Positions 616-31,665 of a stretch of DNA of 64,000 nucleotides are shown here, one piece after another (within the stretch, counting starts at the first letter, position 1; each line of letters opens with the position of its first letter). Under the pieces are notes generated by a model. The model was not told the DNA's origin. It did not search any database and saw nothing but the letters and a program-made list of their open reading frames with translations. Source of the DNA: a virus; the IMG/VR virus record IMGVR_UViG_3300028840_006907, positions 320,001 to 384,000 of that record. One strand, given 5' to 3'. The translations under genes and the position numbers were made by a program.

Positions 616-623
616 TTAATTCC

Positions 624-7759: not shown

Positions 7760-8011
7760 TTTGTCTCCAAGCCAATTTTAAAAAAGATAAATAAAAATTA
7801 GGTCTCATCATAGTAAAAAATATTAAAAGAATATTAAAATACCCTTTACATGCCATATAAATACTTTTTTCTTTTAGAAGTCCTTATAGTCCAGTAGGTT
7901 ATATATCAATTTAATTATCTTTTAATACAAAATTCCTTTGTATAGATCTAAATTTTCTTTAAAATAGAGATATTAAATTCAAATCTAAATCAAATAGTGA
8001 AAGGATTCCTA
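7760..8011. promoter_or_regulatory. divergent intergenic promoter region between minus-strand operon and plus-strand block
   Basis: ~250-bp AT-rich non-coding gap between divergently oriented gene blocks; several TATAAT-like boxes. Confidence 0.3.
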
Positions 8012-9475
8012 ATGGTAACAGAGTTTACAAAAGGCAAAAATCAAAAATTTGTAGCAACTATATCCTTCAGTCTTAATTGGGATGATAGAGATATTAAATC
8101 TATTAAGATAAAAGAGGGTCAGGAACTTTTCTATGATGGTGAAGTAGCTACTGTAGAAAATGGTGCTGGACAAGTAAAAGGTCGGTGTATGGGGTTAAAA
8201 TCAGCCATTAATGTTATGAATTGGTTGGTTCCTGTGGAAAATGGGGGGTCTTCAAAAACTCCTGAAGTACCAAAAATAGTTAGTGATAGTTTATTTGAGA
8301 ATGATGATTATAAACCAGGAATAGGTGGAAATCTTGACACTTATATCGAACGAACTAATGAAATTGGTGGGAAACGAGAAATTATCAAGGAAGAAGATTT
8401 GATTGTTAAAACTGTCTCACCTATTAATAAGAGAGAAGAGCAACCTAAGAAAGGAAAATTGGAAATAGCAGGAGATCAAGTTGAAGTCCCTAAAGACCGC
8501 CTTTTAGTAAGTAGTACCACTATAAGAACAAAGTCGAGTAAAAGAGATGTCACAATAACCAGAGCTGATGAAATGGGAGCTGATTCGGTACAACCTCTTA
8601 AAAAGGTTAAAGGAACAACTGCTAAAAAAGAAAAGAAAAAAAGTTTTACAGTTGATGATACTACTCCAAGACAAATTCATGAAGATATGAAATTGGATGA
8701 GATCCATCGTATCACTAAAGTTGTAAATGCTGATGAGTCTCAAGATGCTAAAGTTGTAAAGAAAATCGATAGATCTAAAGTAGAAGTCAAAGAAATTGAG
8801 GGAGTTACATTAAAGAGAACCGATTCTCCAAAAGATGTTAAGTTTAATAAAACAACTTCTCCTACTGAAGTTTCTATAAAAACTACTGTTGGTTCTGGAA
8901 GTAATTATTCCGCAGGAGATCAAGGTGGTGTGGTTGTAGGTAGATCTAAAGTTGCTAAAACTGGAGTTGAGAAAAAAGGTCAAGATTTAATTGATGATAT
9001 TTTTGAGGAAGCTCCAGTAATTACTGAAGAGGAAAAACAAAAACAAGCTAAAAAATTAGCTGAGAGAACAAAAAAAGCCCAAGAACGAGCGGCCAGCAGG
9101 AAAAAAAGTTCTAAAGAAACACAGAAAATGATGGAAAAGGAGAAAGAAGTTCAGAATGTAGAAGTTGAAATCCCTGCTGATAAGGCACCTGATCTTATTG
9201 AAGAAGTAAAAGCAGATGATTTAACAAAAATTACATCAGTGGAAATAGATGGTGATTTAACTGAAATAACTTCTGTAAAAGAAGATACTGTTGATTATCT
9301 ATTAATGTTGCCCGATAATTGGAACAAACTACATTGGGTAAAGAAGGAAAAATTTATAAAAGAAGTAACAGATGCTTCCTTTATAAGGTTTATTCTTTCT
9401 ATGGAAATAACCAAAGCAGTCAGAAATGCTTGTTTAGAAAGGTTAGAAGAACTTGGACAGAAAGAGTCAGGCTAA
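8012..9475 (+). CDS. lysine/glutamate-rich hypothetical protein (possible scaffold or internal structural protein)
   Basis: ORF track begins at a GTG at 7997; in-frame ATG at 8012 has a GAAAGGA RBS upstream. Highly charged low-complexity sequence. Confidence 0.5.
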   Translation: MVTEFTKGKNQKFVATISFSLNWDDRDIKSIKIKEGQELFYDGEVATVENGAGQVKGRCMGLKSAINVMNWLVPVENGGSSKTPEVPKIVSDSLFENDDYKPGIGGNLDTYIERTNEIGGKREIIKEEDLIVKTVSPINKREEQPKKGKLEIAGDQVEVPKDRLLVSSTTIRTKSSKRDVTITRADEMGADSVQPLKKVKGTTAKKEKKKSFTVDDTTPRQIHEDMKLDEIHRITKVVNADESQDAKVVKKIDRSKVEVKEIEGVTLKRTDSPKDVKFNKTTSPTEVSIKTTVGSGSNYSAGDQGGVVVGRSKVAKTGVEKKGQDLIDDIFEEAPVITEEEKQKQAKKLAERTKKAQERAASRKKSSKETQKMMEKEKEVQNVEVEIPADKAPDLIEEVKADDLTKITSVEIDGDLTEITSVKEDTVDYLLMLPDNWNKLHWVKKEKFIKEVTDASFIRFILSMEITKAVRNACLERLEELGQKESG

Positions 9476-17949: not shown

Positions 17950-18816
17950 ATGGACAAAAAATATGAAGACCGAATGCTTGTCGTTTTTATCTTAGTGGGT
18001 CTAGTTGGTGGGTCACTGTTCTATTTCCTTAAAGATGGTCAGCCTCTCAGCTCAATTTTCATGACTTTCGCTCTATCAAGTATCCTCTATCGATTCCTGG
18101 GTGGAATTGGCCAAGGCACAAAATTCAGTGTCGGAGCATTTCGGTTAGGTGGTAGTGCAGCCTTCATGATCGGCTGTATCTTTTTTATCAACGAGTACAT
18201 TTTCCCAAAACCAGAAATCAACACCATTGTTTTAAGTACTCCCCAGGATCGATGGGTTCCTGTTAAATACCCTACAGGTGAGTATGTGAATGTTAAGGTA
18301 TTAACTCCTTCTGGAGATACTATTATTCATGGTATAAGTAGTGTAGAAATGGATGCTTTAAAAAAAAGGGAATACTGCATCACAAAAGAAGGGGAGAATT
18401 TTTATATCTGTTCTAATGCTGATTCAACGGTAATAGGCCATCTTAAGTTTGAAGATGTTTTTAAAGCTATTGAAAATGATATCCATATCACAGTCCAAGA
18501 TTTTCGGGTTTTTAAATTATACCCTAATCCTATAAATGACCCAAAAGATCAAGAAAAGAAATATAAAACTACTGATTCACTTGATGCTGTAAGTCAGACT
18601 TTTCCCATAGTAATCGAAGTCGATAAAACTAATATGAATATAAAGACAAAGGATGACAGTTTATTAACATCAGATGTACCTCGTAGTGAAAAATTCTATT
18701 TAGTTGATATTGAAAATGAGTATTTTATAGTTACAATATTACATGCTAATTTAGAAACATCAGAAAGTAAATGGTATTCTGAGTTTCTTGTTGGAAAAGT
18801 ATCTATTAATCGATAG
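17950..18816 (+). CDS. hypothetical membrane protein
   Basis: 288 aa; AAAGGAGG RBS; ~3 N-terminal hydrophobic helices. Confidence 0.45.
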   Translation: MDKKYEDRMLVVFILVGLVGGSLFYFLKDGQPLSSIFMTFALSSILYRFLGGIGQGTKFSVGAFRLGGSAAFMIGCIFFINEYIFPKPEINTIVLSTPQDRWVPVKYPTGEYVNVKVLTPSGDTIIHGISSVEMDALKKREYCITKEGENFYICSNADSTVIGHLKFEDVFKAIENDIHITVQDFRVFKLYPNPINDPKDQEKKYKTTDSLDAVSQTFPIVIEVDKTNMNIKTKDDSLLTSDVPRSEKFYLVDIENEYFIVTILHANLETSESKWYSEFLVGKVSINR

Positions 18817-18823
18817 AGGTAAT

Positions 18824-19252
18824 ATGAGCAATATGAAAATTGCAATAGCTTCTTATATGCGTTATACAGTTGTTTTAGCCAACTTGAAAGAGCATTTCAA
18901 AAGAGAACTCGATCTAGCTGGCCTATTTGATAAAGACTCCGATTATAATGGAATGATAGGTAACGCTGTTATGGACCTGTGTAAAGTCTTCTCTGATCAG
19001 GGCCATAGCGGGTTCTCCGCGAACTGGGTTCTGAAATTGTTCGATACTCTTGGTCACTATAAAACGTTGACTCCTATTACAGATAATCCGAAAGAGTGGA
19101 TGAAGGTTACAGATGGCCTCGGTAGAGATGAACCGGTCTGGCAGAGTAATCGAAATCCTTCCCTTTTTTCTAATAATGGTGGAAAGAGTTATTATGATGT
19201 AGACGATAAGAAGCGTAAGAAGATCCGCTCTAAAAAGTTTAAAAAGAAATAA
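18824..19252 (+). CDS. hypothetical protein
   Basis: Track start 18788 is TTG; in-frame ATG at 18824 has an AGAGGT RBS. Confidence 0.4.
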   Translation: MSNMKIAIASYMRYTVVLANLKEHFKRELDLAGLFDKDSDYNGMIGNAVMDLCKVFSDQGHSGFSANWVLKLFDTLGHYKTLTPITDNPKEWMKVTDGLGRDEPVWQSNRNPSLFSNNGGKSYYDVDDKKRKKIRSKKFKKK

Positions 19253-19327: not shown

Positions 19328-19414
19328 ATTATATATAGTATCTATAGCTCTTTGAAATTGGTAGAAATTTACTGAATCCGTAAGCCCTTGATCTTATGAT
19401 ATTTATGTTTTAGT

Positions 19415-20311
19415 ATATTCCCCGCGTATGCGGGGCTGGGCCGATAAATCTTAAAATGGGTAAGATAAAAACCTGAATATTCCCCGCCCATGCGGGGCTG
19501 ATGCGTAATATAAATAATTTTTGATCAATTATAGGACATATTCCCCGCCCCTGCGGGGATTCCCCGAAAATATTGATGTTTTTTTGTATATATCAAAAAT
19601 ATTCCCCGCCCCTGCGGGGTTGATGCGAATACCGAACAAGTGCAGGGCCTGCAGATTATATATTCCCCGCGTATGCGGGGCTGGCGCGTAGGAGGTAAAA
19701 ATGAAATCGAAACATATTCCCCGCGTATGCGGGGCTGGTTCTAGAATTGAATGAAGCGCTGAATTTTCCCCGCCCATGCGGGGCTGAACCGACCGGGAAA
19801 TCATATCTATCCATAAATCTTGCATATTCCCCGCGTATGCGGGGCTGAACCGATACTAGATTGGGACATGTGTTTACCCAGAACATATTCCCCGCCCATG
19901 CGGGGCTGAACCGATTTCAAAAAACACGACCAGATAAAGATGAATATTCCCCGCGTATGCGGGGCTGTGTCAGGGTGAGAGGCTCGTGACGAATAATTTT
20001 TCATATTCCCCGACTCTTCGGGGTTGCCCCTCAGGAAGCTATTGAATTGCAAAAAACTGTATTCCCCGTCTATGCGGGGCTGTCTCTCCACATGCAAATG
20101 TAAGTAGTAAATACTGAATATTCCCCGGCATTCCGGGGCTGATCCCGTCTGGTAAAAACATAAAATGGTTCATCATAAGTATTCCCCGCCCATGCGAGGT
20201 TGGGCCATCCAGTACTGCTACTGCTAGGACCGTATTCCCCGCCCATGCGGGGCTGATCCTACGACTGGGACAGAAGTATTCATTGGTTTCACCCCGGCCT
20301 TTCCGGGGTCT
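19415..20311 (+). CRISPR. CRISPR-like array, 16 palindromic repeats with type I-E-like repeat sequence; non-canonical (degenerate 3' ends, variable spacing); no cas genes in window
   Basis: Consensus ATATTCCCCGCGTATGCGGGG(CTGAACCG) with repeat starts at 19415, 19477, 19538, 19599, 19660, 19714, 19764, 19824, 19885, 19944, 20003, 20059, 20118, 20179, 20232, 20288. Periods 50-62 bp (mode 61). Unique intervening sequences; AT-rich leader upstream; last repeat degenerate. Confidence 0.55.
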
Positions 20312-20409: not shown

Positions 20410-21315
20410 ATGGCAATTGCGTTTATGAGAGGAAGCACCACTAATCAGAATGATTTGACCATAACGGTACGTGATACATCCAATAATTTGATCGACCCGT
20501 ATTCGTTGGAGTATGCTGTCTTCGATTACACTAGTGGCACTGAGGTCCTCATCGGATCCCCTGTTAATACTCCGCTCAAGTTGTCAACAGGAGAATATTG
20601 GGCGGAGGTTGTAATAGCAGCCGATGCCAATATAGGTCTCTGGCGCATCCGTTGGACAATTCAAGAAACAGCAGTCAGTCCTGTTTATCAATCGGTTCAG
20701 GAATTTCAAGTAGTAGGTTCCAGTGTTGTGACGAGTGTAACCGGAGATGCAAATTTTGATGCATTGGTCCATTCTTTACGAGTGATACTCCGAGACAACA
20801 ATCCGGACCGCAACTACAGATTTCGTCCCCCAGCTTCCGAGAAATTTATCCAAGGTCAGACCCAAGTCTTTGGATTCATTTGGGAAGATGAAGAGCTTGT
20901 AGAGTATATATACATGGCTATTGACGACTTCAATTCACGCCCCCCGACTACAGGTATAGATGTGGCCAATCTTTGGGGAACTGAGAGACGGTGGAGAACT
21001 ACAATTATTTTAAGAGCAGCAGCTTTTGCATGTTTCGCTATAACAATGAATTGGATCGCTGACGAATTTTCTTATTCAATTTCTGGAGTATCTCTTGACA
21101 TTGAGAAATCTTCGAAGTATCAATCTATGAAAGAGAATTATATCAATGAATATGACAAGCTTGTCGAGGCCAATAAGAGATCCATAAAAATTATAAAAGG
21201 TCTTAGGCAATATCGGTACGGGGTGGGCATCACGAGCGCCCTGGGACCCATGAACAGACCTGGAGTTCAAAGTAGAAGAAACCTTATAAGTCCAAGTTAT
21301 GGCCCTTATTTCTAA
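20410..21315 (+). CDS. hypothetical protein
   Basis: 301-aa ORF with AAGGAAAAAG RBS. Confidence 0.45.
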   Translation: MAIAFMRGSTTNQNDLTITVRDTSNNLIDPYSLEYAVFDYTSGTEVLIGSPVNTPLKLSTGEYWAEVVIAADANIGLWRIRWTIQETAVSPVYQSVQEFQVVGSSVVTSVTGDANFDALVHSLRVILRDNNPDRNYRFRPPASEKFIQGQTQVFGFIWEDEELVEYIYMAIDDFNSRPPTTGIDVANLWGTERRWRTTIILRAAAFACFAITMNWIADEFSYSISGVSLDIEKSSKYQSMKENYINEYDKLVEANKRSIKIIKGLRQYRYGVGITSALGPMNRPGVQSRRNLISPSYGPYF

Positions 21316-21408
21316 TGAGTTATGGAGATGATAGCTTTTTCTGTAAATCTAAATTATTCTATATGATTTTATAAAGAATATTTGTAGACTTGGACCTAGG
21401 GCAGTACC

Positions 21409-23859
21409 TTATATTTTATTATTTTTTCTAAGGAGAGCTATCTGACGTTTAATCCATCGAGGAGTTTCTTCAAGAGTTTCAGCCATTTGATTTCTTGTCA
21501 TCTTTCCACGATTATCTATTATGAATTGGAGCTTTTCTTCAGTCTTTCTATCTTTGGTACAACCAATAGGGTTTTTTGTAGATAATGTACCTTTTTTTTG
21601 TAAGAATTTTATTTGAGATTTAACCCATCGCTCTGTTTCATTGAGAGCTTTAGATAATTCTTTTTTAGTTTTATTTTTATAATTAGTGATTATATACTGC
21701 GTTTTTTCAGGGGTTCTTCTACATTTTGTTGAGAATTTAGAAATCTCTTTTAAATAGGTAAATTTCTCAGTGGGTTGTTTAATATTTATATCTTCAATAC
21801 ATTTTGAATTATATATTTCTTTTTCTCTTTTAGGATAAGGTTTAGTAACATAATTTTTTAATTTGTTAATTTTTTTCTTATCTCTTTTATTTTCACCTAT
21901 TAATAAGACATATTTATGTTTTCTTTCAGTAATAAATTTTTGAGCTTCAGATAATATATTTTTATTCCAATTATTCCATTGAACTTTAATTCCTTCTGGT
22001 ATGGTACTCATATTTTTAAAACCATTTTCTTTAAACCATTCCTTTTGAGAAATAATCCCTTGATTTTTACACCATTTTTTAAATGCTGATGTACGTTTTA
22101 GAGATTGAGCTGAAAAAGTCCTATTATTTTTAATGGAAGGATGTTTATATAAGTATGAACTTCCAAAGTTATTTCCTAGATAATCAAATCCACAAGCTTG
22201 GTAAATAGTCCCTATTTCAAGAGCTTTAGGATCAGCATAACCTATGAAAGCTCTTTTAGAAGTGTTATTAGCCATCCAATTACAAGCAAACCTTATAAGA
22301 CGGCTACCCAGGTTTTTCGGGGTCCATGAGGCAGTGGCACCTCTTTGAATTAAAGCTTCATATTTGGGAGTATCTTTACCTAGAATTTTGGAATATGCTG
22401 TGGGTTCATTTATAAATAATACTCCTGCGAGAATATTATTGTATCTGGCTGTGAAGCACCATTTTGGTATTACTCCAATTGTTCCTAACCATTCATATTT
22501 TTTTATAAATTGGACCATTTCATTATTAAATTTTTCTTCAGATAATGTAAAAGAAGTAGCTTTTAAAGAAGAGTGATTGAAATCGATATTTTTTTTATCT
22601 TCATCAATCCATTGAAGTTTCTTTTTATATTGGTGGCATATAAAAGTGGTCTTGTTTTTACTGTTAATTTTATTTTTTATTAAATCAATGATAATACCTT
22701 TTCGGATAGCTTCTTTTACATCATCAGACCAAAATCTAATCAAATTGGGTATATTTTTATTTTGGATTTCATCATTCTTAATATTTTCTTTTATTTTTAA
22801 TGCCCTTGGAGACGTATCATTTTCTCTTATTTCTTTACCATGCCAATAATTACCATCATATTGTACCCATAAGTTATAGCGAGGCATATAGAAATCAATT
22901 ACATGTTTAATAATTGGGTGCATAACTTGATGTTCTACAAAAGGATCAAATACAATAAGATAATTAAAAAAGTTATTTTCTTCATCTGAGGATGAGAAGG
23001 AATTATTTAGTTTAACTGTTTTATATGTTTTTTCTTTTATTTCAACATTCTGTTGGGGATTTTCAACGCCATATCTTTCAATATTAGTTTCAGTGATTTT
23101 TTTCTTAATCTCTGGAGATTGGAATACATTGTCAACCCCGTATCTTGATTGTACTGTTACTTTAACTTTTCTTTTTACTTCTTTAGATTGAGAGGGGTAT
23201 TCTACTCCTCGTTTTTCAATATTAGATTGACGGGATTTTTCTTTCATTGAGTTTAGTTGAGTAGAATATTCTACGCCATAACGTTTTTTAATAGTTTCGT
23301 TATTATGTTTAACTATATCTTCATTTATTTTATCTCGATTCCTTCTTAATCCTAGTTTAATAGCTCTTTCTCGGATGGCTTTCCAGGTCCTGTTTTCAAA
23401 GTAGAGCATAATAAATTCCATAGAATTCTTTTCATATACTTCTTTTAAAAGATCATCTTCTTTGGGTGACCAGAAGTCTTCCCTAGCAGGAGCGCTTTTA
23501 CCACCATCAATCATTTCTTGTTTAATTATTTCAGGATTTCTTTGAAGGTTTAATTTTTGAGCATTACTTCGGATGCTTTGCCATGATCGATTCTTGAATT
23601 TAGAAAGGATAAATTCTTTTGAATTATTTTCATATATATTTTTAAGAATATTTATCTCTTCGGTTGTCCAGGAATCTTTTCTTGGTCCTCTTTTTTTACG
23701 GTCTTCATTTATAAGGTCAGGATTACGGTGAAGATTTAGCTTACGTGCTTTTCTACAGATGGTTGTCCAAGATTTATTTAATTTGGAGATAATAAATTCT
23801 TTTGAATTATTTTTATATATTTCTTTTAATAAATTTTCTTCTTCTATTTTCCAACGCAT
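21409..23859 (-). CDS. multidomain hypothetical protein: N-terminal triplicated helical repeats, YGV(E/D)N repeats, possible Vsr/PD-(D/E)xK-like nuclease core
   Basis: Start set at second Met (MRWKIEE) with AAGAGG RBS; track start is 23916. Three ~50-aa repeats (SWTTEEINILKNIYENNSKEFI...); three RYGVxNxxQ repeats; VIDFYMPRYNLWVQYDGNYWHG resembles a Vsr/DUF559-type core. Only minus-strand gene in the plus-strand block. Confidence 0.5.
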   Translation of the reverse strand: MRWKIEEENLLKEIYKNNSKEFIISKLNKSWTTICRKARKLNLHRNPDLINEDRKKRGPRKDSWTTEEINILKNIYENNSKEFILSKFKNRSWQSIRSNAQKLNLQRNPEIIKQEMIDGGKSAPAREDFWSPKEDDLLKEVYEKNSMEFIMLYFENRTWKAIRERAIKLGLRRNRDKINEDIVKHNNETIKKRYGVEYSTQLNSMKEKSRQSNIEKRGVEYPSQSKEVKRKVKVTVQSRYGVDNVFQSPEIKKKITETNIERYGVENPQQNVEIKEKTYKTVKLNNSFSSSDEENNFFNYLIVFDPFVEHQVMHPIIKHVIDFYMPRYNLWVQYDGNYWHGKEIRENDTSPRALKIKENIKNDEIQNKNIPNLIRFWSDDVKEAIRKGIIIDLIKNKINSKNKTTFICHQYKKKLQWIDEDKKNIDFNHSSLKATSFTLSEEKFNNEMVQFIKKYEWLGTIGVIPKWCFTARYNNILAGVLFINEPTAYSKILGKDTPKYEALIQRGATASWTPKNLGSRLIRFACNWMANNTSKRAFIGYADPKALEIGTIYQACGFDYLGNNFGSSYLYKHPSIKNNRTFSAQSLKRTSAFKKWCKNQGIISQKEWFKENGFKNMSTIPEGIKVQWNNWNKNILSEAQKFITERKHKYVLLIGENKRDKKKINKLKNYVTKPYPKREKEIYNSKCIEDINIKQPTEKFTYLKEISKFSTKCRRTPEKTQYIITNYKNKTKKELSKALNETERWVKSQIKFLQKKGTLSTKNPIGCTKDRKTEEKLQFIIDNRGKMTRNQMAETLEETPRWIKRQIALLRKNNKI

Positions 23860-23962
23860 ATGAGTACCTCTTTTTAGTATATTACTTATTATAACAGGTA
23901 TTAGAGTTATTGTCAATATTTCATTTAATAAATATGGAATTCATTAATTTATAGGGAAAAAG

Positions 23963-24316
23963 ATGGAAATTGAAATTTATGGAAAAGAATTTGTTTCTTG
24001 TAATATTTTAAGGGCTGAAGTAGGTACAAATTGCCCACAGGGGGGAGATACAGGACATGGTGGTCGAACTATTTTAAGATTGATTGATGAAGCAGCTACT
24101 GATATAAGTATAAAAGTAGATGGTCAGCCTTTAGGTAGTATAAAAACTTTGGAAATATTATTAGGTGGCGATACTGAGTGCGACACTTTTATGAATGCTC
24201 TTAATTTTGCCTTGAATGTATTAAAAGATCATAATCCAAATTATGAAATGGATCCACATATAAGAGGTTCTGGGAAGGGATTGATACAAAAAGATTATAA
24301 AATAGAAACATTATGA
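23963..24316 (+). CDS. hypothetical protein
   Basis: 117-aa ORF; stop overlaps next start (ATGA). Confidence 0.4.
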   Translation: MEIEIYGKEFVSCNILRAEVGTNCPQGGDTGHGGRTILRLIDEAATDISIKVDGQPLGSIKTLEILLGGDTECDTFMNALNFALNVLKDHNPNYEMDPHIRGSGKGLIQKDYKIETL

Positions 24317-24861
24317 TTACAAAGATAGAATTATTAGAAAAATACAGAACTTTAAAACCGTTTGTTATGGAGCCTAATCTAGGAGTCAATCTTATTGTTG
24401 GTGAGAATGGTTCGGGTAAATCCTCATTGTTAAATATTATAAAGGAAAATGCTCCTGAGGTAAGATTAGAAATTGAAGGTACTATAAATTATTACCATTT
24501 TGATACGGAAAAGGACAATCCTCGAACTCAAGGCACTCTTCCATTTAATGCTCCTGGTGATGTTTATGCCTATCATCTGACGTCACATTTCCAGAGTCAT
24601 GGTGAAGTACTATTTCCTATTTTAAATCTTATGAGAACTTTTGAGAACAGGATTTTATTCTATGATGAACCGGAGAGTGGGGTCTCGATTAATAATCAGT
24701 TAAAGGCATGTACTGCGATAAGAAAAGCGGTAAGGAATGGTTGTCAACTTTTTATTGCGACTCATTCTTATATATTTATAAAAAAATTTAAAAAAGTCTT
24801 TGATTTAAAGACATATCAATTTGTAAAATCAGAGGATTGGTTATCTCAATTTAGGATATAA
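24313..24861 (+). CDS. small P-loop NTPase (ABC/AAA_21-like ATPase fragment)
   Basis: 182 aa; Walker A GENGSGKSS and Walker B-like ILFYDEPESG; short for a full ABC ATPase. Confidence 0.5.
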   Translation: MITKIELLEKYRTLKPFVMEPNLGVNLIVGENGSGKSSLLNIIKENAPEVRLEIEGTINYYHFDTEKDNPRTQGTLPFNAPGDVYAYHLTSHFQSHGEVLFPILNLMRTFENRILFYDEPESGVSINNQLKACTAIRKAVRNGCQLFIATHSYIFIKKFKKVFDLKTYQFVKSEDWLSQFRI

Positions 24862-25073
24862 CATGATACCAGAATGGGTTTATAGATTAATGGTTGAAGA
24901 TCGAGAACGATGTATGATAAATCATTTAGAAAAAAGGAATTATATTGACGAGGAAGAGATAAAAGAGAATACTCTTTCTGATATCTCTGAAAAGGATTAA
25001 AATATGACTCTCATGGATTTACATAAATAAATTTTATTTCACATATTTTTTAACTTTACATAAGGAGACATAC

Positions 25074-25913
25074 ATGCACAAAATAATAGTCTTATTATTA
25101 GTTTTGTTAGTGAATGTTTTTTCTGTAACGCCTGAATATTTGTGGGTAGGTTCCTACACTATTGAGCATTACAATAATGGTGTTTATTTGGCTTATAGTC
25201 ATAAGCAAGCTTCTGCTTTTACTTCTCTAATGAGTTGGCTTATTAATTGGAAAAATCTTGATATTGATTATAAGTGGAATCATAACTATAAGGATGCTGC
25301 TGTTAATGAGACAGTATTCGAAGGACAGGATTTTAATATTAATGAATTTCTCATTTTTGTTAGTCATGGTTATCGGGGAGGAATGGTCATTAATAAATAT
25401 AATACTTCGACTACTTATGCAATGGATATCTCTAATCAATATCCTAATACCAGATCATGGGATTTTGGTAATTCTTATACCAAATGGATTATCATGGGTT
25501 CTTGTCATACAATCCTGGATGAGCATGTGACTGTGTGGGGGACCACTTTTTATTTTTACGATCAGATTTTTGATGGTGTGCATAGTATTATGGGCTATAA
25601 ATCTGATGGTAGAAACGTTTATGATGGTGGTCCGATAGGAAGATTCCCATTAGAGTGGGTTCATAATCGACGTTCTATTTGGAATGCATGGCGTGTGTCG
25701 GTCCGGGAAGAAGTATATGAAGGTTGCAACCAAGATGTGACACCTTCCATGGTAGGTGTTTGGGGAACTGTGAATGGGCAAGATTGGGATGCAGATACTG
25801 AATTGTTTTATGCTGTGTATGATGCCTTAACACCTCATAATGAAACTTTGGGGGCTTGGATAGGTTATGGTATGATGTATCGTCATGTTGAATATGGCGA
25901 TCCGGAATATTAA
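25074..25913 (+). CDS. secreted hypothetical protein
   Basis: 279 aa; N-terminal signal-peptide-like MHKIIVLLLVLLVNVFSVTPE; AAGGAGA RBS. Confidence 0.45.
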   Translation: MHKIIVLLLVLLVNVFSVTPEYLWVGSYTIEHYNNGVYLAYSHKQASAFTSLMSWLINWKNLDIDYKWNHNYKDAAVNETVFEGQDFNINEFLIFVSHGYRGGMVINKYNTSTTYAMDISNQYPNTRSWDFGNSYTKWIIMGSCHTILDEHVTVWGTTFYFYDQIFDGVHSIMGYKSDGRNVYDGGPIGRFPLEWVHNRRSIWNAWRVSVREEVYEGCNQDVTPSMVGVWGTVNGQDWDADTELFYAVYDALTPHNETLGAWIGYGMMYRHVEYGDPEY

Positions 25914-25930
25914 AAAAGGGAGATAAAGAG

Positions 25931-26848
25931 ATGAAAAAAGTATTTATTATAATAGTATTGTTTTGTGCTTATGGATTTTCAGAAATATCTGTGTCAGATA
26001 TTGTTAAATCATTTGTGGATAATCCAAAGACTTTCAGATCTAGATTGTTGAAATATGAAGTTATTCCAGACCATGTTGATTTACCAATAGAATTTGTCGA
26101 TGATGAAGATGAAAGTTTATGGAAAACTAAGAAAAAGGTTAATTATATAATAGATTATTCAAAGATGTCGAAATGTGCTGATAAATTTAGAGATCTTTTT
26201 GCATATGAAGGATTGACTGAATATCAGTATATGGATCAGTCAAACCTTTTGGTATTTAATCATCCTAATGGTGGCCGTGAAGTATCCGCACAGATTGTCA
26301 GGGATTTGATTAATACTAGAACAGAGGCAGAATTAAAAAATATAGGATTGACTTTAGGTGAAAAGCTCTTTGCCATTTTTAAGAATAAAATAGAATTTCA
26401 ATGTACGGAAATAGAGTATACAAGGGGTCATACGAATTTAAACCAAATAAGTAAATACTCTATTCGATATAGGCGTATTTTTAATGATGGTATTGTCTTA
26501 CAGAATATTTCCTATATAATGTTAACTCTGGAAGGACTTGGTGATTTGATTGAAGTCGAGATTAAATGGCCTAAATTTAAAAAATGTGAAAATATAAAGA
26601 ATGGCATTTTAATTAAGGACGCTTTAATATTAGCTAAACAAGAGTATAATGAAATCGCTTCTCGAAAAGTTGATGAATTCTTAAATATTGAAGCTATCGA
26701 TAGACTTTCTATAACTGGATCTTGTTTTGGATGGACTCATGAGATCATTGATGGTGTTAATTTATTAAAACCTAGTTATGGGTTTGTGGGAATAGCTGAA
26801 ACAAAGAATGGTAAAAAAGAACATCATTATATAAATATCGATAAATGA
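25931..26848 (+). CDS. secreted hypothetical protein
   Basis: 305 aa; signal-peptide-like MKKVFIIIVLFCAYGFSEIS; GGGAGA RBS. Confidence 0.45.
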   Translation: MKKVFIIIVLFCAYGFSEISVSDIVKSFVDNPKTFRSRLLKYEVIPDHVDLPIEFVDDEDESLWKTKKKVNYIIDYSKMSKCADKFRDLFAYEGLTEYQYMDQSNLLVFNHPNGGREVSAQIVRDLINTRTEAELKNIGLTLGEKLFAIFKNKIEFQCTEIEYTRGHTNLNQISKYSIRYRRIFNDGIVLQNISYIMLTLEGLGDLIEVEIKWPKFKKCENIKNGILIKDALILAKQEYNEIASRKVDEFLNIEAIDRLSITGSCFGWTHEIIDGVNLLKPSYGFVGIAETKNGKKEHHYINIDK

Positions 26849-26888
26849 TCTATTTTTTTGATACAGTTTTGTAGAAATGGGCTAAATC

Positions 26889-27614
26889 TTGCAACAACAA
26901 ATTTTCGGGTGTTTAAAAGATACTCTTTCGATTCTGATTGTTTTAAAAGATCCTACAGTTGTTAAAAAGATTATAAGGTTTATTCAGCCTACTTATATTT
27001 ATAATATCACAATAGTTAATTCGGTTAAAGGAGCACAGGAAGTTCTTGACAAAGAAAGAGTTCATCTCTGTCTTCTGGGTTCTGAATTTAAAGAATTTGC
27101 TATTATAAATAAATATTTATATACTTCGTTTATAATATTTGTAATTGATGATATAAATTATCATGAGATTTTTAATTATGTGAAATTAGGAGTTAAGACT
27201 CTAATTGACAAAGGTAGTATTAACTTCTCTTTGATAAAAATAATTAATCATTTTTCTCTTAGGAATGTTATTAATCCATTCTATAGAAGAGGTTTCGAAG
27301 ATATTTTATCTGTTTCCACTGAAAAATTAATTGAAAGAAATCCTAGTGGAGTAACTGACTGGGCTTCTGATTGTGGTATATCAGAAAGACAATTAAGATG
27401 GATATGGAATATAAGATTTAAAGTAAAAACTAGAATCGTATTATTTATTTATAAAATTTATAAAACTGCTTTTGATGTTAAAAACCCTTTAGACAAAAAG
27501 ACCTTCGAACAATTAACTTTTTTCTTTATTTCCCATAAAAATGAAATAATAGATTATATCAATTACTTACAATTAAAAGATGTTCCTGTCTACAAAATGT
27601 TCTTTCAATCGTAA
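26889..27614 (+). CDS. possible pseudo-receiver/HTH regulatory protein
   Basis: 241-aa ORF with no in-frame ATG near the 5' end (TTG start); receiver-like FIIFVIDD...KLGVKTLIDKG and HTH-like GISERQLRWIW; low-complexity. May be degenerate. Confidence 0.3.
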   Translation: MQQQIFGCLKDTLSILIVLKDPTVVKKIIRFIQPTYIYNITIVNSVKGAQEVLDKERVHLCLLGSEFKEFAIINKYLYTSFIIFVIDDINYHEIFNYVKLGVKTLIDKGSINFSLIKIINHFSLRNVINPFYRRGFEDILSVSTEKLIERNPSGVTDWASDCGISERQLRWIWNIRFKVKTRIVLFIYKIYKTAFDVKNPLDKKTFEQLTFFFISHKNEIIDYINYLQLKDVPVYKMFFQS

Positions 27615-27695
27615 TAAACTTCTAATACTCTATTCAATGTAATAATCAATTGATATTTAGCTCTGTTTTAAAGACTATCTGATAAGGAGCAAAAA

Positions 27696-27941
27696 ATGGC
27701 TTTTGAAGTTGAATATTTTGAATTGTCACCGAGCGATGCAACAAATGAGTATGTCTCATTAGGGGGTGTTCCAGTGGTTGCTGATAATGTTGCAATAGAT
27801 CTTGTGGGAGGTACAGCCCAAGCATTAACGAATGATTTTGCCGTTGATGGAACAAGAATTGTATGGGATAGTACATCCTATAATTTAAATGGACTGCTTG
27901 CTACTGGTGACAAAATGAGAGCTATCTACGATAGATCCTAA
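27696..27941 (+). CDS. small hypothetical protein upstream of fibre genes
   Basis: 81 aa; AAGGAG RBS; immediately precedes the fibre gene pair. Confidence 0.4.
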   Translation: MAFEVEYFELSPSDATNEYVSLGGVPVVADNVAIDLVGGTAQALTNDFAVDGTRIVWDSTSYNLNGLLATGDKMRAIYDRS

Positions 27942-27978: not shown

Positions 27979-30900
27979 ATGGCTCAAGTAGAAAGAAAAT
28001 GGATCCAGGACCAAGCAATTTCCAATGAAAAAGTAGATCCCACTGATATTTATACCATTACAGGTTTAAGAGTTGATGAAACCAATGCCATTGGGAGAGT
28101 AGGAATAGGTTTATCTAGCCCTTTGGATGCTCTTCATATTCAACGAACTGATTCTTCTTCTGGAATGATGCTGGATCTTAGTGATGGTACAAATGGTAAA
28201 CTTTATAAGATATATTCAGGAGCTAATGGTTTACTGAATTTTACTGATGCTACAGATGGGGGCATATTCACCTATGGTGAATCAGGTTCGATAGGTCGAG
28301 TTGGTATCAATACCGCATCTATCCAAGATCACCTTCATGTAAGTTCCCCTTTAACAGATGCTGCGTTAAGACTTGATTTAGATGATGGACTCAATGGTCG
28401 AGCTTATCGTCTTGTCTCAGATACAGATGGAGCTTTTAGGATAATTGATGTTGATGCGGGTAATGTAAATAGACTTCAGATTGCTAATACAGGAACTTTA
28501 ACTGTCTCAGGTGATGCAACTTTTGATAGTAATTTTCAAATTAATGGTACTGTTACAGTTATTAATACTGAAATTGTCATTGCAGATCAATTAGAAATAA
28601 ATCAAACTGACAATCAGGCAGCATTGATAGTAAGTCAAGATACAGGTGGTGCTACAGCCACTGTAATGAGAATTGAAAATGCTGGCACAGGCCATGCTTT
28701 AACCGTAGATTCTGGTAATGTAGGTATTGGTACTTTAACTCCGGCTGCTCCTCTTCATGTTCAAGGTGATATAATTACTGCCAATGGGTATAATATCGGA
28801 GACACCACTCATAGAATTGGTACTCTTTGGATGGCTTCTACTGTAGATTATTTGACTGACCTTAATTTTAGTTCAGGTGGAACAAATGTTACTTTTGCAA
28901 CCGGTGGAAATGTCGGGATAGGTTCTGGTACTCCTACCCAGGCCCTGGATGTGGTTGGAACTATAGAAAATACAGGTGATATCATAACAACTGGTTCTTA
29001 TCCTTCCGGTTTAATAAGAGGAGCTTATTTAACGATAACTACTGGAAATTCGACTTTCCAAGGAAGAGTGGGAATTGGTGTTACAAGTCCGTCTTATCCT
29101 CTTCATGTTGGTGGAGACATTTATTCCAATACAGGTAATATTGTAGCCACTGCTGGAACTGTGACAGGTGGATCTGGTTTAATAGCTACTACAGGTGGTG
29201 TTATAGCCTCTGCTGGAAATATAACAGCGACCTTGGGTGATCTCATCGCTTCTGCGGGTTCTGTAACTGCTAATACAAATGTAACTGCTACGAATGGAAA
29301 TATAGTTGCTTCTAATGGAAATATTTCTGCTACGAATGGTACAGTAACAGGAGGCACCGGTTTAATAGCTACCACAGGGGGTGTGACCGCTACGAATGGA
29401 AATATAGTTGCTTCTAATGGAAATATTTCTGCTACGAATGGTACAGTAACAGGAGGCACCGGTTTAATAGCTACCACAGGGGGTGTGACCGCTTTAGCTG
29501 GTAATATCTCTGCTTCGGCTGGTTCTGTAACTGCTAATACTAATATAACAGCCACGAATGGTAATATTGTTGCTTCTAATGGAAATATTTCTGCTACAAA
29601 TGGTACGGTAACAGGAGGCACCGGTTTAATAGCGACTACAGGTGGTGTAACCGCTACGGCTGGAAATATCACTGCTTCAAATGGTAGTTTTGTCGCTCCA
29701 AATGGAATTGTAAGTGTAGGTTTTGGCGTTATAGCAGCAGGGGGTGATATATTTGCCCAAACGGGTAAAGTAGGAATTTCAACCAGTTCTATTGCAGGAG
29801 GTTATGTATTACATGTTCAAGGAAACGCTTATTGTTCAGGTCAAGTAGATACAAATACTTTGGATGTAGGTAGTGGCAGTTTTACTGTAAGTGCAATTGG
29901 TGCAACAAATATCGGACCAGGCTGGTTAACTTTCGGTCAACATATGTCTGGTGGAGGACAGATTGGATCTGCTTCTACCGTAAATATTGTTTCAACCAGT
30001 GGTGCAACTATGTCAGGAGGTTCAGGCGCTGTCTCAATTACTACTAATAACAGTGGTACGCCAAGTGCGATTAATGTGACCTCTGGAAATAACACCGGAT
30101 CAGGAGTTGGTGGAGCACTCAATCTGAATGCAGGTGATTCGGGAGGAGCTGGTACAGGTGGTGCAGTAACTATTACTGGAGGAACGGCTTCAGGTGGTGG
30201 ATCTACAGGAGGAGACATTTTGCTGCTTCCTGGAAGTGCTGTCTCAAATGGGCGCGTTGAGGTAGGCACAGGTGCCTCTTCGAAAAATTTATGGGTTTCA
30301 GGTAGTGTAACTATAGAAGGAGCTAATTCTGCTTTTGCTCTTTCGATTAATAATACGAATTATGTAGGAGCTTATTGTGCAATAGCAGGAGCATCAACGG
30401 TAGCTGGCTGGTTTGAAAATAGTGGTTCAGATTCAACATCTATGTTTGTGCAACAATTAAATACTGGTAAAGGGCTTTTCGCTACTGGATTAGGATTAAA
30501 TTCTTTTGCAGGATTTTTCCAAAGTACGGGCTATACAACTCTTAGGTCAGAAGTGAGTGGTACTGGAGGTGGTGATTATGCTGTACATGCAATATGTACA
30601 AATGCTGGATCGAGTGCCACTTCAGCAGCAGTTTTTGCTCAAAATTGGGGAGGTGGAAAAGCTATTCAGGCAACCGCAGGAACTGGAACTACTATTCAAG
30701 GGTCAAACACTAATGGTACTGCTATTTATGGGTCTCAAGCAGGAACCTCTGGTAGAGCAGGACGTTTTAGGTGTAATGCTGGATCTTATGCATACAATGC
30801 TGTTGAGGTAGAAGTGACTTCAGGTACAGGAGCTTCAAAAGGGATCTTAGTTAATTATACCGGTTCTGGTAATGCTATAGAAGTAAACGGTGGTAGTGGC

Positions 30901-31665
30901 TATGGTATTGAAGCATACCAAAGTGCAGGAACAGTTTATCATGGGACTAATTCAGGAACTACAGGTAGAGCTGCTTTATTCGAAACTTCTAATACCAGTT
31001 TTAATGGTACTATAGTTGAAATAAGTAGTAATACAACATCACTGAATAATAATTGTTTAGTTTGCAATCATTCAGGTAGTGGTACAGGTCTTACTGTTAA
31101 CTCCAATGCAGCGGGTGCTAGTTTTGGTATTAACAGCTTTATGCCGGGTGTCTCTGGAACTGGAAGAGCTATTAATGGCTACTGTGTTTCAGCATCAGGA
31201 TTTGCCGGTTATTTTACTGGGAATGTACATATTGCGGGTACTCTTTCTAAAACTGCGGGTGGTTTTAAAATTGATCATCCAATTGAACCTGAGACAAAGA
31301 ATTTAGTTCATAGTTTTGTTGAAAGCCCTGAGATGAGGAATGTCTATTATGGACGGGCTGTGACTCATGATGGGACAGCATCTATAGGTCTTCCGGATTG
31401 GTGGGTTACATTAAATGGGTCTAATAAGGAAGAGTATAATTATAGTTTAACTACTATTGGTAAATACAGCAGATTATTTATTAGTAAAGAAATAGAGAAC
31501 AATCAATTTGAAGTCTCTTCATTGGATGGAGACTGTACTTTTTCCTGGACTATCTCAGCCATTCGCCATGATACTTATGCTGAGAGCAACAGAATACAAG
31601 TAGAAAAGAACAAAACACAAGAAGAAATAGATGATTATAAAAAAGAGCATGGCATTTCTGTCTAA
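27979..31665 (+). CDS. glycine/threonine-rich fibre-like structural protein (tail-fibre-like), paralog 1
   Basis: 1228 aa; AAAGGAG RBS; long G/T/S/N-rich beta-rich repeats; N-terminal ~300 aa closely match 31696-35172. Confidence 0.6.
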   Translation: MAQVERKWIQDQAISNEKVDPTDIYTITGLRVDETNAIGRVGIGLSSPLDALHIQRTDSSSGMMLDLSDGTNGKLYKIYSGANGLLNFTDATDGGIFTYGESGSIGRVGINTASIQDHLHVSSPLTDAALRLDLDDGLNGRAYRLVSDTDGAFRIIDVDAGNVNRLQIANTGTLTVSGDATFDSNFQINGTVTVINTEIVIADQLEINQTDNQAALIVSQDTGGATATVMRIENAGTGHALTVDSGNVGIGTLTPAAPLHVQGDIITANGYNIGDTTHRIGTLWMASTVDYLTDLNFSSGGTNVTFATGGNVGIGSGTPTQALDVVGTIENTGDIITTGSYPSGLIRGAYLTITTGNSTFQGRVGIGVTSPSYPLHVGGDIYSNTGNIVATAGTVTGGSGLIATTGGVIASAGNITATLGDLIASAGSVTANTNVTATNGNIVASNGNISATNGTVTGGTGLIATTGGVTATNGNIVASNGNISATNGTVTGGTGLIATTGGVTALAGNISASAGSVTANTNITATNGNIVASNGNISATNGTVTGGTGLIATTGGVTATAGNITASNGSFVAPNGIVSVGFGVIAAGGDIFAQTGKVGISTSSIAGGYVLHVQGNAYCSGQVDTNTLDVGSGSFTVSAIGATNIGPGWLTFGQHMSGGGQIGSASTVNIVSTSGATMSGGSGAVSITTNNSGTPSAINVTSGNNTGSGVGGALNLNAGDSGGAGTGGAVTITGGTASGGGSTGGDILLLPGSAVSNGRVEVGTGASSKNLWVSGSVTIEGANSAFALSINNTNYVGAYCAIAGASTVAGWFENSGSDSTSMFVQQLNTGKGLFATGLGLNSFAGFFQSTGYTTLRSEVSGTGGGDYAVHAICTNAGSSATSAAVFAQNWGGGKAIQATAGTGTTIQGSNTNGTAIYGSQAGTSGRAGRFRCNAGSYAYNAVEVEVTSGTGASKGILVNYTGSGNAIEVNGGSGYGIEAYQSAGTVYHGTNSGTTGRAALFETSNTSFNGTIVEISSNTTSLNNNCLVCNHSGSGTGLTVNSNAAGASFGINSFMPGVSGTGRAINGYCVSASGFAGYFTGNVHIAGTLSKTAGGFKIDHPIEPETKNLVHSFVESPEMRNVYYGRAVTHDGTASIGLPDWWVTLNGSNKEEYNYSLTTIGKYSRLFISKEIENNQFEVSSLDGDCTFSWTISAIRHDTYAESNRIQVEKNKTQEEIDDYKKEHGISV
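29287..29490 (+). repeat. perfect 102-bp tandem duplication inside fibre CDS, plus a third imperfect copy to ~29650
   Basis: Unit GCTACGAATGGAAATATAGTTGC...GGGGGTGTGACC repeated identically at 29287 and 29389; in-frame, 34 aa (ATNGNIVASNGNISATNGTVTGGTGLIATTGGVT). Confidence 0.8.

Follow-up and report, generated by a model that had tools for sequence, protein, structure and literature searches.

A huge-phage cassette predicted to fuse a homing-endonuclease-type nuclease to a Mom-type adenine modifier

Does a long phage gene that lies close to a repeat array encode a compact CRISPR-associated effector, and, if it does not, what does it encode? We examined this question for a gene on the minus strand of a 64-kb window of viral DNA (64,000 nucleotides, positions 320,001 to 384,000 of IMG/VR record IMGVR_UViG_3300028840_006907; 'the window' denotes this whole stretch). 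From sequence comparison and structural modelling, we conclude that its product is not a CRISPR effector and is predicted to be a huge-phage fusion of a homing-endonuclease-type nuclease with a Mom-type adenine modifier (Table 1).

Table 1. Coordinates of the gene, its predicted domains and the genes that border its insertion site.
Feature	Position	Strand	Evidence
Promoter, TTGACA-17 nt-TATAAT with TG extension	23888..23916	-	12/12 match to sigma-70 consensus
Ribosome-binding site AAGAGG, 7 nt before ATG 23859	23867..23872	-	Read in sequence
Coding sequence, 816 aa + stop	21409..23859	-	P0001 identity, homologue lengths, promoter, ribosome-binding site
Three Myb/SANT-like repeats of three helices each, presumed to bind DNA, about aa 1-190	23305..23859	-	Profiles, homologues, model
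Four 23-aa YGV helical repeats, about aa 186-284; N-terminal part of Pfam DUF7487	23011..23304	-	Pfam, AF2 model
Vsr/EDxHD-type PD-(D/E)xK nuclease, aa 284-400; E294, D322, D335, H340, D363	22660..23010	-	Profile alignments, conservation
Mom-family GNAT-fold predicted DNA adenine-N6 modification domain, about aa 401-690	21790..22659	-	Pfam, PHROG, hhalign, Foldseek, conservation
Two HTH modules (..ETxRWVKxQI..), aa 713-816	21412..21723	-	Pfam, AF2 model
w301, conserved 301-aa gene, left border of insertion site	20410..21315	+	Tail-to-tail with cassette in every case
Homologue of conserved about 93-aa gene, right border of hot spot in this phage	27696..27941	+	Relatives

The gene lies in a single long open reading frame (21409..23916) that would encode 835 amino acids if a TTG start were used, the length given in the initial annotation. 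Starting at the ATG at 23859 yields 816 amino acids, a product to which a database protein (P0001) is 100% identical, and homologues are 808–819 amino acids long. The TTG start (23916) coincides with the beginning of the -35 hexamer, TTGACA, of a promoter whose perfect form occurs once in the window against a chance expectation of 0.10, and three homologous loci (L003, L009 and L010) have near-consensus promoters at a matching distance from the gene. Because the TTG sits in the promoter, a ribosome-binding site precedes the ATG, and P0001 and the homologue lengths agree, the extension is spurious and the true product has 816 residues. The open reading frame was thus real, and the coordinates first assigned to it, 21409–23859, were those of the ATG start; only the length of 835 fell away.

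We found no match to Cas, TnpB, IscB, RuvC, HNH or HEPN families in the protein with Pfam, NCBIfam and PADLOC, and the NCBIfam and PADLOC scans gave zero matches of any kind. All 816 residues are allotted to other confidently modelled domains, the largest leftover being a 29-residue linker. Profile and structure searches, which had been proposed as a check, returned nuclease and Mom folds instead of Cas12, TnpB or IscB. The array itself (19406–20261) is type I-E-like and degenerate, and matched neither a CRISPR-repeat family nor any other family in Rfam. Its description as lying beside the gene is loose: it is nearby, but 1.15 kb from the 3' end of the gene, with the conserved w301 in between. 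Nor is this neighbourhood conserved. The repeat of the array is absent from nine homologous loci (L003–L011); no array was present in the examined flanks of L004, and L003 has a related hairpin array that is again parted from the gene by a w301 homologue. Together, these results bear out the earlier opinion that the protein is not a Cas effector.

The protein is built, from N to C terminus, of three Myb/SANT-like repeats, four YGV repeats, a Vsr-like nuclease, a Mom GNAT domain and two HTH modules, and the AF2 model of the full protein has a pLDDT of 90.4. A full-length profile gave only marginal matches to PDB sequences, and the assignments come from segment-wise profile and structure searches. 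Consistent with the tandem Myb/SANT-like repeats noticed initially, a unit of about 62 residues occurs in three copies, which are modelled as three three-helix bundles (pLDDT >90), and Myb families matched 8–9 of the 30 homologues in a Pfam scan of 30 sequences, at best with 1.3e-7. On the protein itself, Pfam Myb stayed below threshold (E 0.059; 13.9 bits, cutoff 24.4), and a profile search against PDB sequences matched c-Myb R3 to the N-terminal repeats with an E value of 0.5. Homologues have 0 to 4 copies. The YGV unit (pattern R/K-x-G-V, 23 residues, four copies here) is present in 3 to about 10 copies in homologues. The idea that these repeats are DNA-binding linkers of phage endonucleases holds in so far as they lie inside DUF7487, a phage endonuclease family, whereas DNA binding is an assumption. 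The C-terminal HTH modules follow a linker that is disordered in the AF2 model (aa 684–712), and the same module begins the LAGLIDADG–methylase proteins found at the same site in two other loci (L020 and L034). The earlier domain list was incomplete, having overlooked the Mom domain, the two HTH modules and the cassette nature of the gene. A pure transcription-factor reading was rejected, as the protein contains two conserved enzymatic domains.

The first of these domains had been likened to Vsr/DUF559-type nuclease cores, and we found that it has the Vsr-type alpha-beta-beta-beta-alpha-beta fold, with the segment IDFY..LWVQYDGNYWHG as its core. It is best captured by Pfam DUF7487, which covers the nuclease domain (62.9 bits, cutoff 27, E 5e-17), and a PHROG homing endonuclease family matched with 5e-15. 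On the protein, Pfam Vsr (PF03852) was below threshold (12.1 bits against 27, E 0.18) and DUF559 (PF04480), which matches 2 of 30 homologues, was not matched above threshold. The five residues E294, D322, D335, H340 and D363 are equivalent to Vsr E25, D51, H64, H69 and D97. HMMER aligned D322, D335 and H340 to the EDxHD positions of PDB 3r3p, and hhalign aligned these three and D363 to Vsr residues; E294 was assigned by spacing alone, lying 28 residues before D322, compared with 26 for E170–D196 in I-Bth0305I. Conserved catalytic-motif residues are present: in an alignment of 96 homologues of 32–75% identity, 30 of which were used for the Pfam domain scan, D322 is invariant and the other four EDxHD positions are at least 90% conserved. 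Y338 and W339, the equivalents of Vsr F67 and W68, are also conserved in these 96 homologues, W339 invariantly. A distant member (P0110) has a classical D...ExK motif in place of EDxHD, which suggests that catalysis may be kept there by another route. The 117-residue domain contains no cysteine, so the Vsr zinc-binding site is missing, as it is in I-Bth0305I (PMC3239194). Because of this missing zinc motif, and given the fused and mobile context, we rejected a Vsr mismatch-repair enzyme.

Conservation along the protein peaks in the second enzymatic domain, of about 290 residues, which holds most of the invariant columns. Pfam Mom (PF25680) matched it with 41.9 bits (cutoff 27.1, E 1e-10) and matched all 30 aligned homologues, and a PHROG Mom-like family matched with 5e-18. 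The domain was modelled with a pLDDT of about 90–98, and its best Foldseek matches in the PDB were the two chains of phage Mu Mom (8bv8_A and 8bv8_B; E 7e-8 and 1e-7; TM 0.59 and 0.64, normalised to Mom), followed by generic GNATs. An hhalign comparison, which spans Mu residues 96–171 only, placed R111, S124, D139 and Y149 of Mu Mom at R506, S519, D543 and Y553, all of which are invariant in the 96 homologues. R111 and S124 are indispensable for catalysis in Mu Mom (Silva 2026, PMC13219725); the numbering and roles of D139, Y149 and the H48/Y49 pair are those of Karambelkar 2020 (PMC7261163). By inspection, beyond the hhalign span, the Mu motif KHYSRRF resembles KKYEWLG here; H48 is apparently K454, and Y455 is at least 90% conserved. 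Homology also seems, by inspection, to reach the C-terminal ..PYPK tail, a stretch that scored -0.8 bits. Pfam and Foldseek found no SAM-dependent methylase domain in the protein, and the predicted modifier is Mom.

Proteins of this kind form a large family, with 478 cluster representatives at E <= 1e-30, and Mom domains of this subfamily occur in further fusions as well, with LAGLIDADG (P0128 and P0133) and REase_MTES_1575 (P0135) domains. The annotation 'putative homing endonuclease' is frequent among DUF7487 members, and the term 'DUF7487' was found in no paper of the literature searched. Megablast with the 20 kb surrounding the gene gave zero matches among 50,697 phage records, and in tblastn with the full-length protein as query no deposited phage reached 80% coverage; the closest deposited Mom homologues, from Vibrio phage 501E54-1 and Klebsiella phage RaK2, are encoded by stand-alone genes rather than as fusions. 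No domain of the protein has a paralogue or second copy elsewhere in the window.

To place the gene in its surroundings, we compared homologous loci. It lies antisense between two conserved neighbours, an orientation shared by eight of the nine gene-bearing loci compared, and has a GC content of 28.6%, compared with 42.7% in the neighbouring gene; the interval between the two borders (21316–27695) has 29–32% GC against 40–43%. In cassette-free relatives, the gene of about 93 codons is directly 3' of w301. Among 12 closely related loci, five are filled, five are empty with 22–59 bp between the flanking genes, and two (L020 and L034) contain a LAGLIDADG fusion to an N6/N4-methylase; other relatives have stand-alone DUF7487 nucleases at the same site. 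The junctions are exact: the flanking protein of an empty locus (L056) is 86% identical to that of the filled loci L012 and L013, and DNA homology ends exactly at the ends of the flanking genes, with 57 bp between them in L056 and 2,243 bp in L012. The gene is therefore sporadically present between conserved genes and constitutes a free-standing accessory cassette with its own promoter in a huge phage. Between L012 and L013, both flanks and the first 200 or so codons of the gene are 95–97% identical, whereas the nuclease and Mom part is only about 65% identical, which indicates that nuclease and Mom were swapped together. The flanking gene carries an intein, which in L008 and L009 has a DUF559-type nuclease, and the locus thus attracts homing elements. 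Across more distant loci, the identities of the cassette and the flanking gene are roughly congruent, so that some of the patchiness could stem from vertical inheritance and occasional loss.

The best explanation for this combination, to which we give about an even chance (roughly 0.5), is a mobile single-chain restriction–modification-like element in which Mom shields the DNA of the carrier and the nuclease cuts unmodified DNA. Phage Mu Mom moves glycine from Gly-tRNA(Gly) to form its modified adenine. The Mom domain here would likewise turn adenines in double-stranded DNA into N6-carbamoylmethyl-adenine, with the nuclease and the presumed DNA-binding repeats (Myb, YGV and HTH) on the same polypeptide. 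Momylation, in the place that methylation has in restriction–modification, would mark the DNA of the carrier phage, so that the element's nuclease and, as a side effect, the restriction enzymes of the host would be kept from cutting it. The nuclease domain would cut unmarked DNA, either of cassette-free co-infecting relatives (homing or exclusion), of the host chromosome, or of both. Both enzymatic activities, their targets and the protective coupling between them are inferences. So many presumed DNA-binding modules in tandem point to a target that is long or rare, and this accords better with homing than with wholesale breakdown of the host's DNA.

A weaker competitor, though one to be taken seriously, is that the protein is an ordinary free-standing homing endonuclease with Mom as useful cargo and the two activities uncoupled. 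In relatives that lack the cassette, it would cut a specific site close to where the gene inserts, leading to gene conversion, and the anti-restriction benefit of Mom would keep the selfish element from being purged. The nuclease family includes the proven homing endonucleases I-Bth0305I and Hef (PMC3239194), DUF7487 occurs at 6–16 places per huge-phage record, and the presence or absence of the gene at one intergenic site, the stand-alone DUF7487 nucleases there and the intein of the flanking gene are all as homing would have it. However, unrelated nuclease folds (Vsr-like and LAGLIDADG) and unrelated modifiers (Mom and N6/N4 methylase) are repeatedly found fused, which is hard to understand without functional coupling, and the exchange of nuclease and Mom as one block between near-identical backbones also argues against uncoupled cargo.

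Less probable still is a protein that is chiefly an anti-restriction modifier, in which the Vsr-like domain no longer cuts and, with the Myb, YGV and HTH modules, binds, distorts or presents DNA to Mom. The greater conservation of Mom and the early-type sigma-70 promoter would agree with such a role, as would Y338 and W339, given that Vsr inserts the aromatic residues F67 and W68 into DNA (PMC3239194). By contrast, retention of the five EDxHD positions across such divergent homologues would not be expected of a dead nuclease, P0110 has its alternative motif at the same position, and the stand-alone Mom enzymes of Mu, Vibrio phage 501E54-1 and RaK2 need no such domain. Finally, a compact CRISPR-associated effector working with the neighbouring array, to which only the size of the protein and the 1.15-kb distance to a type I-E-like array point, has a negligible chance in the face of zero Cas-type matches, the assignment of every residue to other folds, the conserved gene in between, homologous cassettes (L004–L011) that lack the repeat, and the degenerate state of the array.

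Extending the restriction–modification-like reading beyond this protein, we tentatively propose, as a possibility that we hold to be rather doubtful, that huge phages carry 'self-immunising' mobile nucleases as a general class. Such a class might comprise homing-endonuclease domains of unrelated folds, Vsr/EDxHD here and LAGLIDADG in P0128, P0133, L020 and L034, fused to base modifiers, either tRNA-dependent Mom or an N6/N4 methylase. Its members might compete for one intergenic hot spot, the modifier marking the carrier and the nuclease hitting unmarked relatives or hosts. If such a class exists, it would consist of single-chain selfish restriction–modification elements built on hypermodification, not methylation.

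The analysis removes a false lead, as a compact new Cas effector is not present here, and supplies a concrete, well-conserved example of the Mom hypermodification with a fused nuclease that has been predicted in jumbo or huge phages as a restriction–modification-like weapon. The chemistry of Mom, with glycine from a charged tRNA, was solved only in 2026. With its large family, two intact active sites and modular architecture, the protein offers a practical entry point to the questions of whether a fused DNA modifier 'immunises' homing endonucleases, how such cassettes spread among phages, and whether they hold new modification-sensitive nucleases for use as tools.

The protein belongs to a kind that was already predicted, because Iyer, Anantharaman, Krishnan, Burroughs and Aravind (2021, Viruses 13:63; PMC7824862) described Mom–REase fusions in jumbo phages as predicted modification and restriction systems. 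Both cases have a Mom GNAT fused in one polypeptide to a REase-fold nuclease in a very large phage, and the proposed logic is the same: the phage's own DNA would be protected by momylation, and other DNA would be attacked by the nuclease. Theirs was a computational prediction of one paragraph; here the nuclease is specifically of the Vsr/EDxHD type and has YGV repeats (DUF7487), the cassette is present in some relatives and absent from others at a single intergenic hot spot, and fusions of LAGLIDADG, which is not a REase fold, to Mom or a methylase also exist. Compared with Mu Mom (PDB 8bv8), the domain shares the GNAT fold, as its best structural match, and the invariant equivalents of R111, S124, D139 and Y149, at about 15–27% sequence identity. 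Mu Mom stands alone with 231–241 residues under Com/C late control, whereas the domain here is embedded in 816 residues, alongside a nuclease and nine modules presumed to bind DNA, and the gene has a consensus sigma-70 promoter. Like the EDxHD/Vsr-like homing endonucleases I-Bth0305I (PDB 3r3p) and phage Hef, the protein lacks the Vsr zinc site, has N-terminal tandem DNA-binding modules and is encoded by a phage-borne, free-standing gene between conserved genes. It differs from them in its fusion to a predicted DNA-modifying enzyme, in having Myb and YGV repeats in place of NUMOD/HTH modules, and in the length of the helix that follows the WH motif, a helix that at 19 residues in the model is long like that of Vsr. 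In T4-like phages, different homing endonuclease families replace one another at one intergenic site (PMC2988022). The likeness to restriction–modification is a functional analogy only: single-chain type IIG/IIC-like enzymes such as BpuSI and DrdV use a SAM methyltransferase, whereas the protein described here is phage encoded, has no recognisable target-recognition domain of the restriction–modification type, and would modify DNA through a tRNA-dependent GNAT, Mom.

The initial annotation had read an 835-aa protein; the minus-strand reading frame stands, but not the length. Because the TTG from which 835 aa are counted opens a strong promoter and AAGAGG precedes the first ATG (see table), the protein has 816 aa and the gene has a promoter of its own. 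This promoter is the only perfect sigma-70 consensus in the 64-kb window, where 0.10 would be expected by chance. Near-consensus promoters lie 28-40 nt from the ATG of homologues in three related viral loci (L003, 11/12; L010, 11/12; L009, 10/12), similar to that of the window gene. Database protein P0001, found on contigs of up to 469,617 bp (NCBI, JGI, ENA), has exactly the sequence of this product, and full-length homologues have 808-819 aa.

Coordinates of features in the window, in the 816-aa protein (aa) and in related viral loci (L numbers)
Feature	Position	Strand	Details
Long open reading frame	21409..23916	minus	one frame, 835 aa counted from TTG
Fusion gene	21409-23859	minus	816 aa from first ATG
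Promoter TTGACA-17 nt-TATAAT with TG extension	first base = TTG at 23916	minus	sequence read
AAGAGG	7 nt before ATG 23859	minus	sequence read
Three three-helix bundles	aa 1-185		AlphaFold model
DUF7487	aa 186-283		Pfam, 5e-17
Four 23-aa helix-loop repeats (RYGVEYS.., KRGVEYP.., RYGVDNV.., RYGVENP..)			AlphaFold model
Alpha-beta-beta-beta-alpha-beta domain	aa 284-400		AlphaFold model
Mixed alpha/beta domain	aa about 401-690		AlphaFold model
'Mom-like DNA modification protein'	aa 451-689		PHROGs, 5e-18
Mom	aa 505-599		Pfam, 1e-10, above threshold
Disordered linker	aa 684-712		AlphaFold model
Two three-helix HTH units	aa 713-816		AlphaFold model
w301 (conserved 301-aa gene)	20410-21315	plus	
w81 (homologue of conserved 93-aa gene)	27696-27941		
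LAGLIDADG_2-methylase fusion, L020	7968-10253	plus	761-776 aa (with L034), directly after w301 homologue
LAGLIDADG_2-methylase fusion, L034	7864-10194	plus	761-776 aa (with L020), directly after w301 homologue
w301 with intein, L006	10430-11959		
w301 with intein, L008	10164-12535		
w301 with intein, L009	10159-12529		
w301 with intein, L011	5560-7918		
Small genes	23963-27614	plus	117, 182, 45, 279, 305, 241 aa; GC 30-32%
Tad3 gene	18788-19252	plus	154 aa; Pfam, E 5e-33, well above threshold
'CRISPR array'	19406-20261	plus	15 units, spacing 49-62 nt
Hairpin units, L003	5490-8280		>40 units, period ~54 nt
Large ORFs	27979-31665, more up to 62958	plus	1228, 1158, 741, 1305, 682, 2441, 933 aa

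The AlphaFold model draws on 96 homologues and, with a mean pLDDT of 90.4, can be called confident. HTH, Myb and Vsr families of Pfam matched only weakly, and two 'homing endonuclease' families of PHROGs matched as well. Repeat copy numbers differ among homologues (Myb, 0-4; YGV, 3 to about 10; C-terminal HTH, 0-2), and the cores of nuclease and Mom do not vary. The Vsr/DUF559-type core that had been proposed by eye was confirmed by the modelled alpha-beta-beta-beta-alpha-beta fold and by the placement and conservation of the EDxHD residues, a motif formed by E170/D196/N208/H213/D222 of I-Bth0305I and equivalent to Vsr E25/D51/H64/H69/D97 (Taylor et al., PMC3239194). D322, D335, H340 and D363 align with its last four positions (HMMER alignment; hhalign to Vsr), and E294 is assigned to the first from its spacing to D322 only. 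In 96 homologues, D322 is invariant and the other four residues are each at least 90% conserved; in P0110, a distant member, a classical D..ExK motif takes this place. The domain contains no cysteine and thus lacks the Vsr zinc site, as does I-Bth0305I (PMC3239194). In comparison with viral structures, the N-terminal half has as neighbours 'putative homing endonucleases' of Pseudomonas phage PA5oct and Campylobacter phage CP21; tblastn matches include the Dickeya LIMEstone homing endonuclease F-LimIII, and Lak and other huge phages carry many matching copies per genome.

Although right about a non-Cas protein with a Vsr-like nuclease, the initial annotation had overlooked the Mom domain. When the full model was compared with the PDB, the crystal structure of phage Mu Mom ranked first (8bv8, E 7e-8; TM 0.59-0.64 normalised to Mom), ahead of generic GNAT acetyltransferases. 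Residues R111, S124, D149 and Y159 of Mu Mom (GenBank numbering) correspond to R506, S519, D543 and Y553 (hhalign against the family), all invariant in the 96 homologues. Catalysis by Mu Mom depends on both R111 and S124 (Silva 2026, PMC13219725), and its activity needs D149 and Y159 (D139 and Y149 in Karambelkar numbering; PMC7261163). In the Mom reaction, adenine in dsDNA receives glycine from Gly-tRNA(Gly) at its N6 position; rearrangement of the adduct then gives N6-carbamoylmethyl-adenine, a modified base that stops many restriction enzymes (PMC13219725).

The gene has a GC content of 28.6%, versus 42.7% for the neighbouring w301 and 40% for a tail-fibre-like gene. In every locus retrieved via the protein itself, it and a w301 homologue are arranged tail-to-tail, and in eight of these nine loci it is antisense to the surrounding structural-type genes (the exception is L011). 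A second set, of 80 viral loci, was fetched by w301 instead of by the fusion gene. Its close clade, with 53-74% identity to the window's w301, comprises 12 loci. A Mom fusion directly follows w301 in five of them (L012, L013, L015, L019, L021), the site is empty in another five (L014, L016, L017, L018, L056), with 22-59 bp to the next conserved (~93-aa) gene, and in two (L020, L034) it holds a protein with LAGLIDADG_2 and N6_N4 DNA methylase domains on the strand opposite to that of the Mom fusion. These two proteins keep the acidic residues of both LAGLIDADG_2 motifs and the DPCAGWGGR and SPPY motifs of the methylase, and they begin with HTH modules that share homology with the HTH at the C-terminus of the window protein; they represent another type of fusion between nuclease and modifier at this hot spot. 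In the distant clade (w301 identity 39-47%), a stand-alone DUF7487 nuclease occupies the site in 10 loci among those listed, four of which have identical copies.

With a w301 that shares 86% identity with the w301 of L012 and L013, the empty locus L056 falls among filled ones. At the DNA level, L056 and L012 are homologous up to the w301 stop codon and again from the beginning of the 93-aa gene onwards, the interval being 57 bp in L056 versus 2,243 bp in L012. L012 and L013 are 95-97% identical over both flanks and the first ~200 codons of the fusion gene, whereas the replaced block, within 7900-9450, is confined to nuclease, Mom and C-terminal part, which are ~65% identical or unalignable; one recombination breakpoint falls within the coding sequence, just past the YGV repeats. 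Because the two diverge only there, nuclease and Mom were exchanged as one block. As w81 is the window's homologue of the 93-aa gene, the whole of 21316-27695 is a low-GC accessory island.

The small genes between the cassette and w81 are missing in empty-site relatives. Their 182-aa product is a miniature ABC/AAA ATPase, shared with L003 only; at its two ends it matches defence ATPases of the GajA/AriA/PtuA type, in their N- and C-terminal parts. The window has an intact w301; in relatives an intein splits ..NWIADEF/S..HN/SY(T/S)ISGVSLD.., as a mini-intein within a single ORF in L006. In L008 and L009, w301 is divided into two ORFs and the insert bears a DUF559/Vsr-like nuclease, resembling the 'fractured genes' where the EDxHD family was first found.

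The array is atypical. Its repeats resemble type I-E (ATATTCCCCGCGTATGCGGGGCTGAACCG) with a degenerate loop and last 8 nt, 99.5% of cells retain the 6-bp hairpin, in which two pairs show compensatory changes, and a terminator-like hairpin with a T-run comes after it. No cas gene was noticed nearby, and an Rfam search of the array gave no match. The homologous units at the syntenic place in L003 have a co-varied stem, CCCCAC/GTGGGG. The window array may be decaying, or may be an anti-CRISPR-like array of RNA decoys. Since Tad3 (a type I Thoeris inhibitor, also encoded in L003), the hairpin array and the Mom fusion stand together, the stretch looks like an anti-defence neighbourhood. The 1228-aa protein, with long tandem ..ATNGNIVASNGNISATNGTVTGGTGLIATTGGVTA.. 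repeats, probably serves a huge phage as a tail-fibre or adhesin module.

An exhaustive HMMER search gave 478 cluster representatives at E <= 1e-30. Proteins matching through the Mom domain alone (45-52% identity) have different N-terminal parts: LAGLIDADG_2 (P0128, 2e-31; P0133, 6e-29), REase_MTES_1575 with DUF7487 (P0135) or zinc-finger modules (P0175). Three of the four pairings of Vsr-like or LAGLIDADG nuclease with Mom or methylase were thus observed. We give a probability of about 50% to a mobile, single-chain analogue of restriction-modification, whose activities, targets and protective relationship we infer. A homing endonuclease with Mom as uncoupled cargo is conceivable but unlikely, and functional coupling is preferred mainly because nuclease-modifier fusions recur and the block is exchanged whole. 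It is improbable that the protein is a Mom enzyme whose nuclease domain merely handles DNA; judged by its residues, that domain looks catalytically competent. A Cas effector, already doubted at first reading, has next to no chance: NCBIfam and PADLOC scans of the protein matched nothing, profile scans found no RuvC, HNH or HEPN family in it, other folds account for the whole chain, w301 stands between array and gene, and linkage to the array is not kept, its repeat not being found in homologous loci L003-L011.

The evidence for a restriction-modification analogue agrees with the prediction of Iyer et al. for jumbo-phage Mom domains fused to REase-fold nucleases, namely that momylation shields the phage and the nuclease is directed against DNA of the host or of superinfecting phages (PMC7824862), and the protein is a further example of a kind predicted but never characterised. 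To this we add that the nuclease is of the homing-endonuclease type, and that the gene behaves like the free-standing genes for homing endonucleases in T4-like phages, whose sites are intergenic, flanked by conserved genes, and are taken over by other endonuclease families (PMC2988022).
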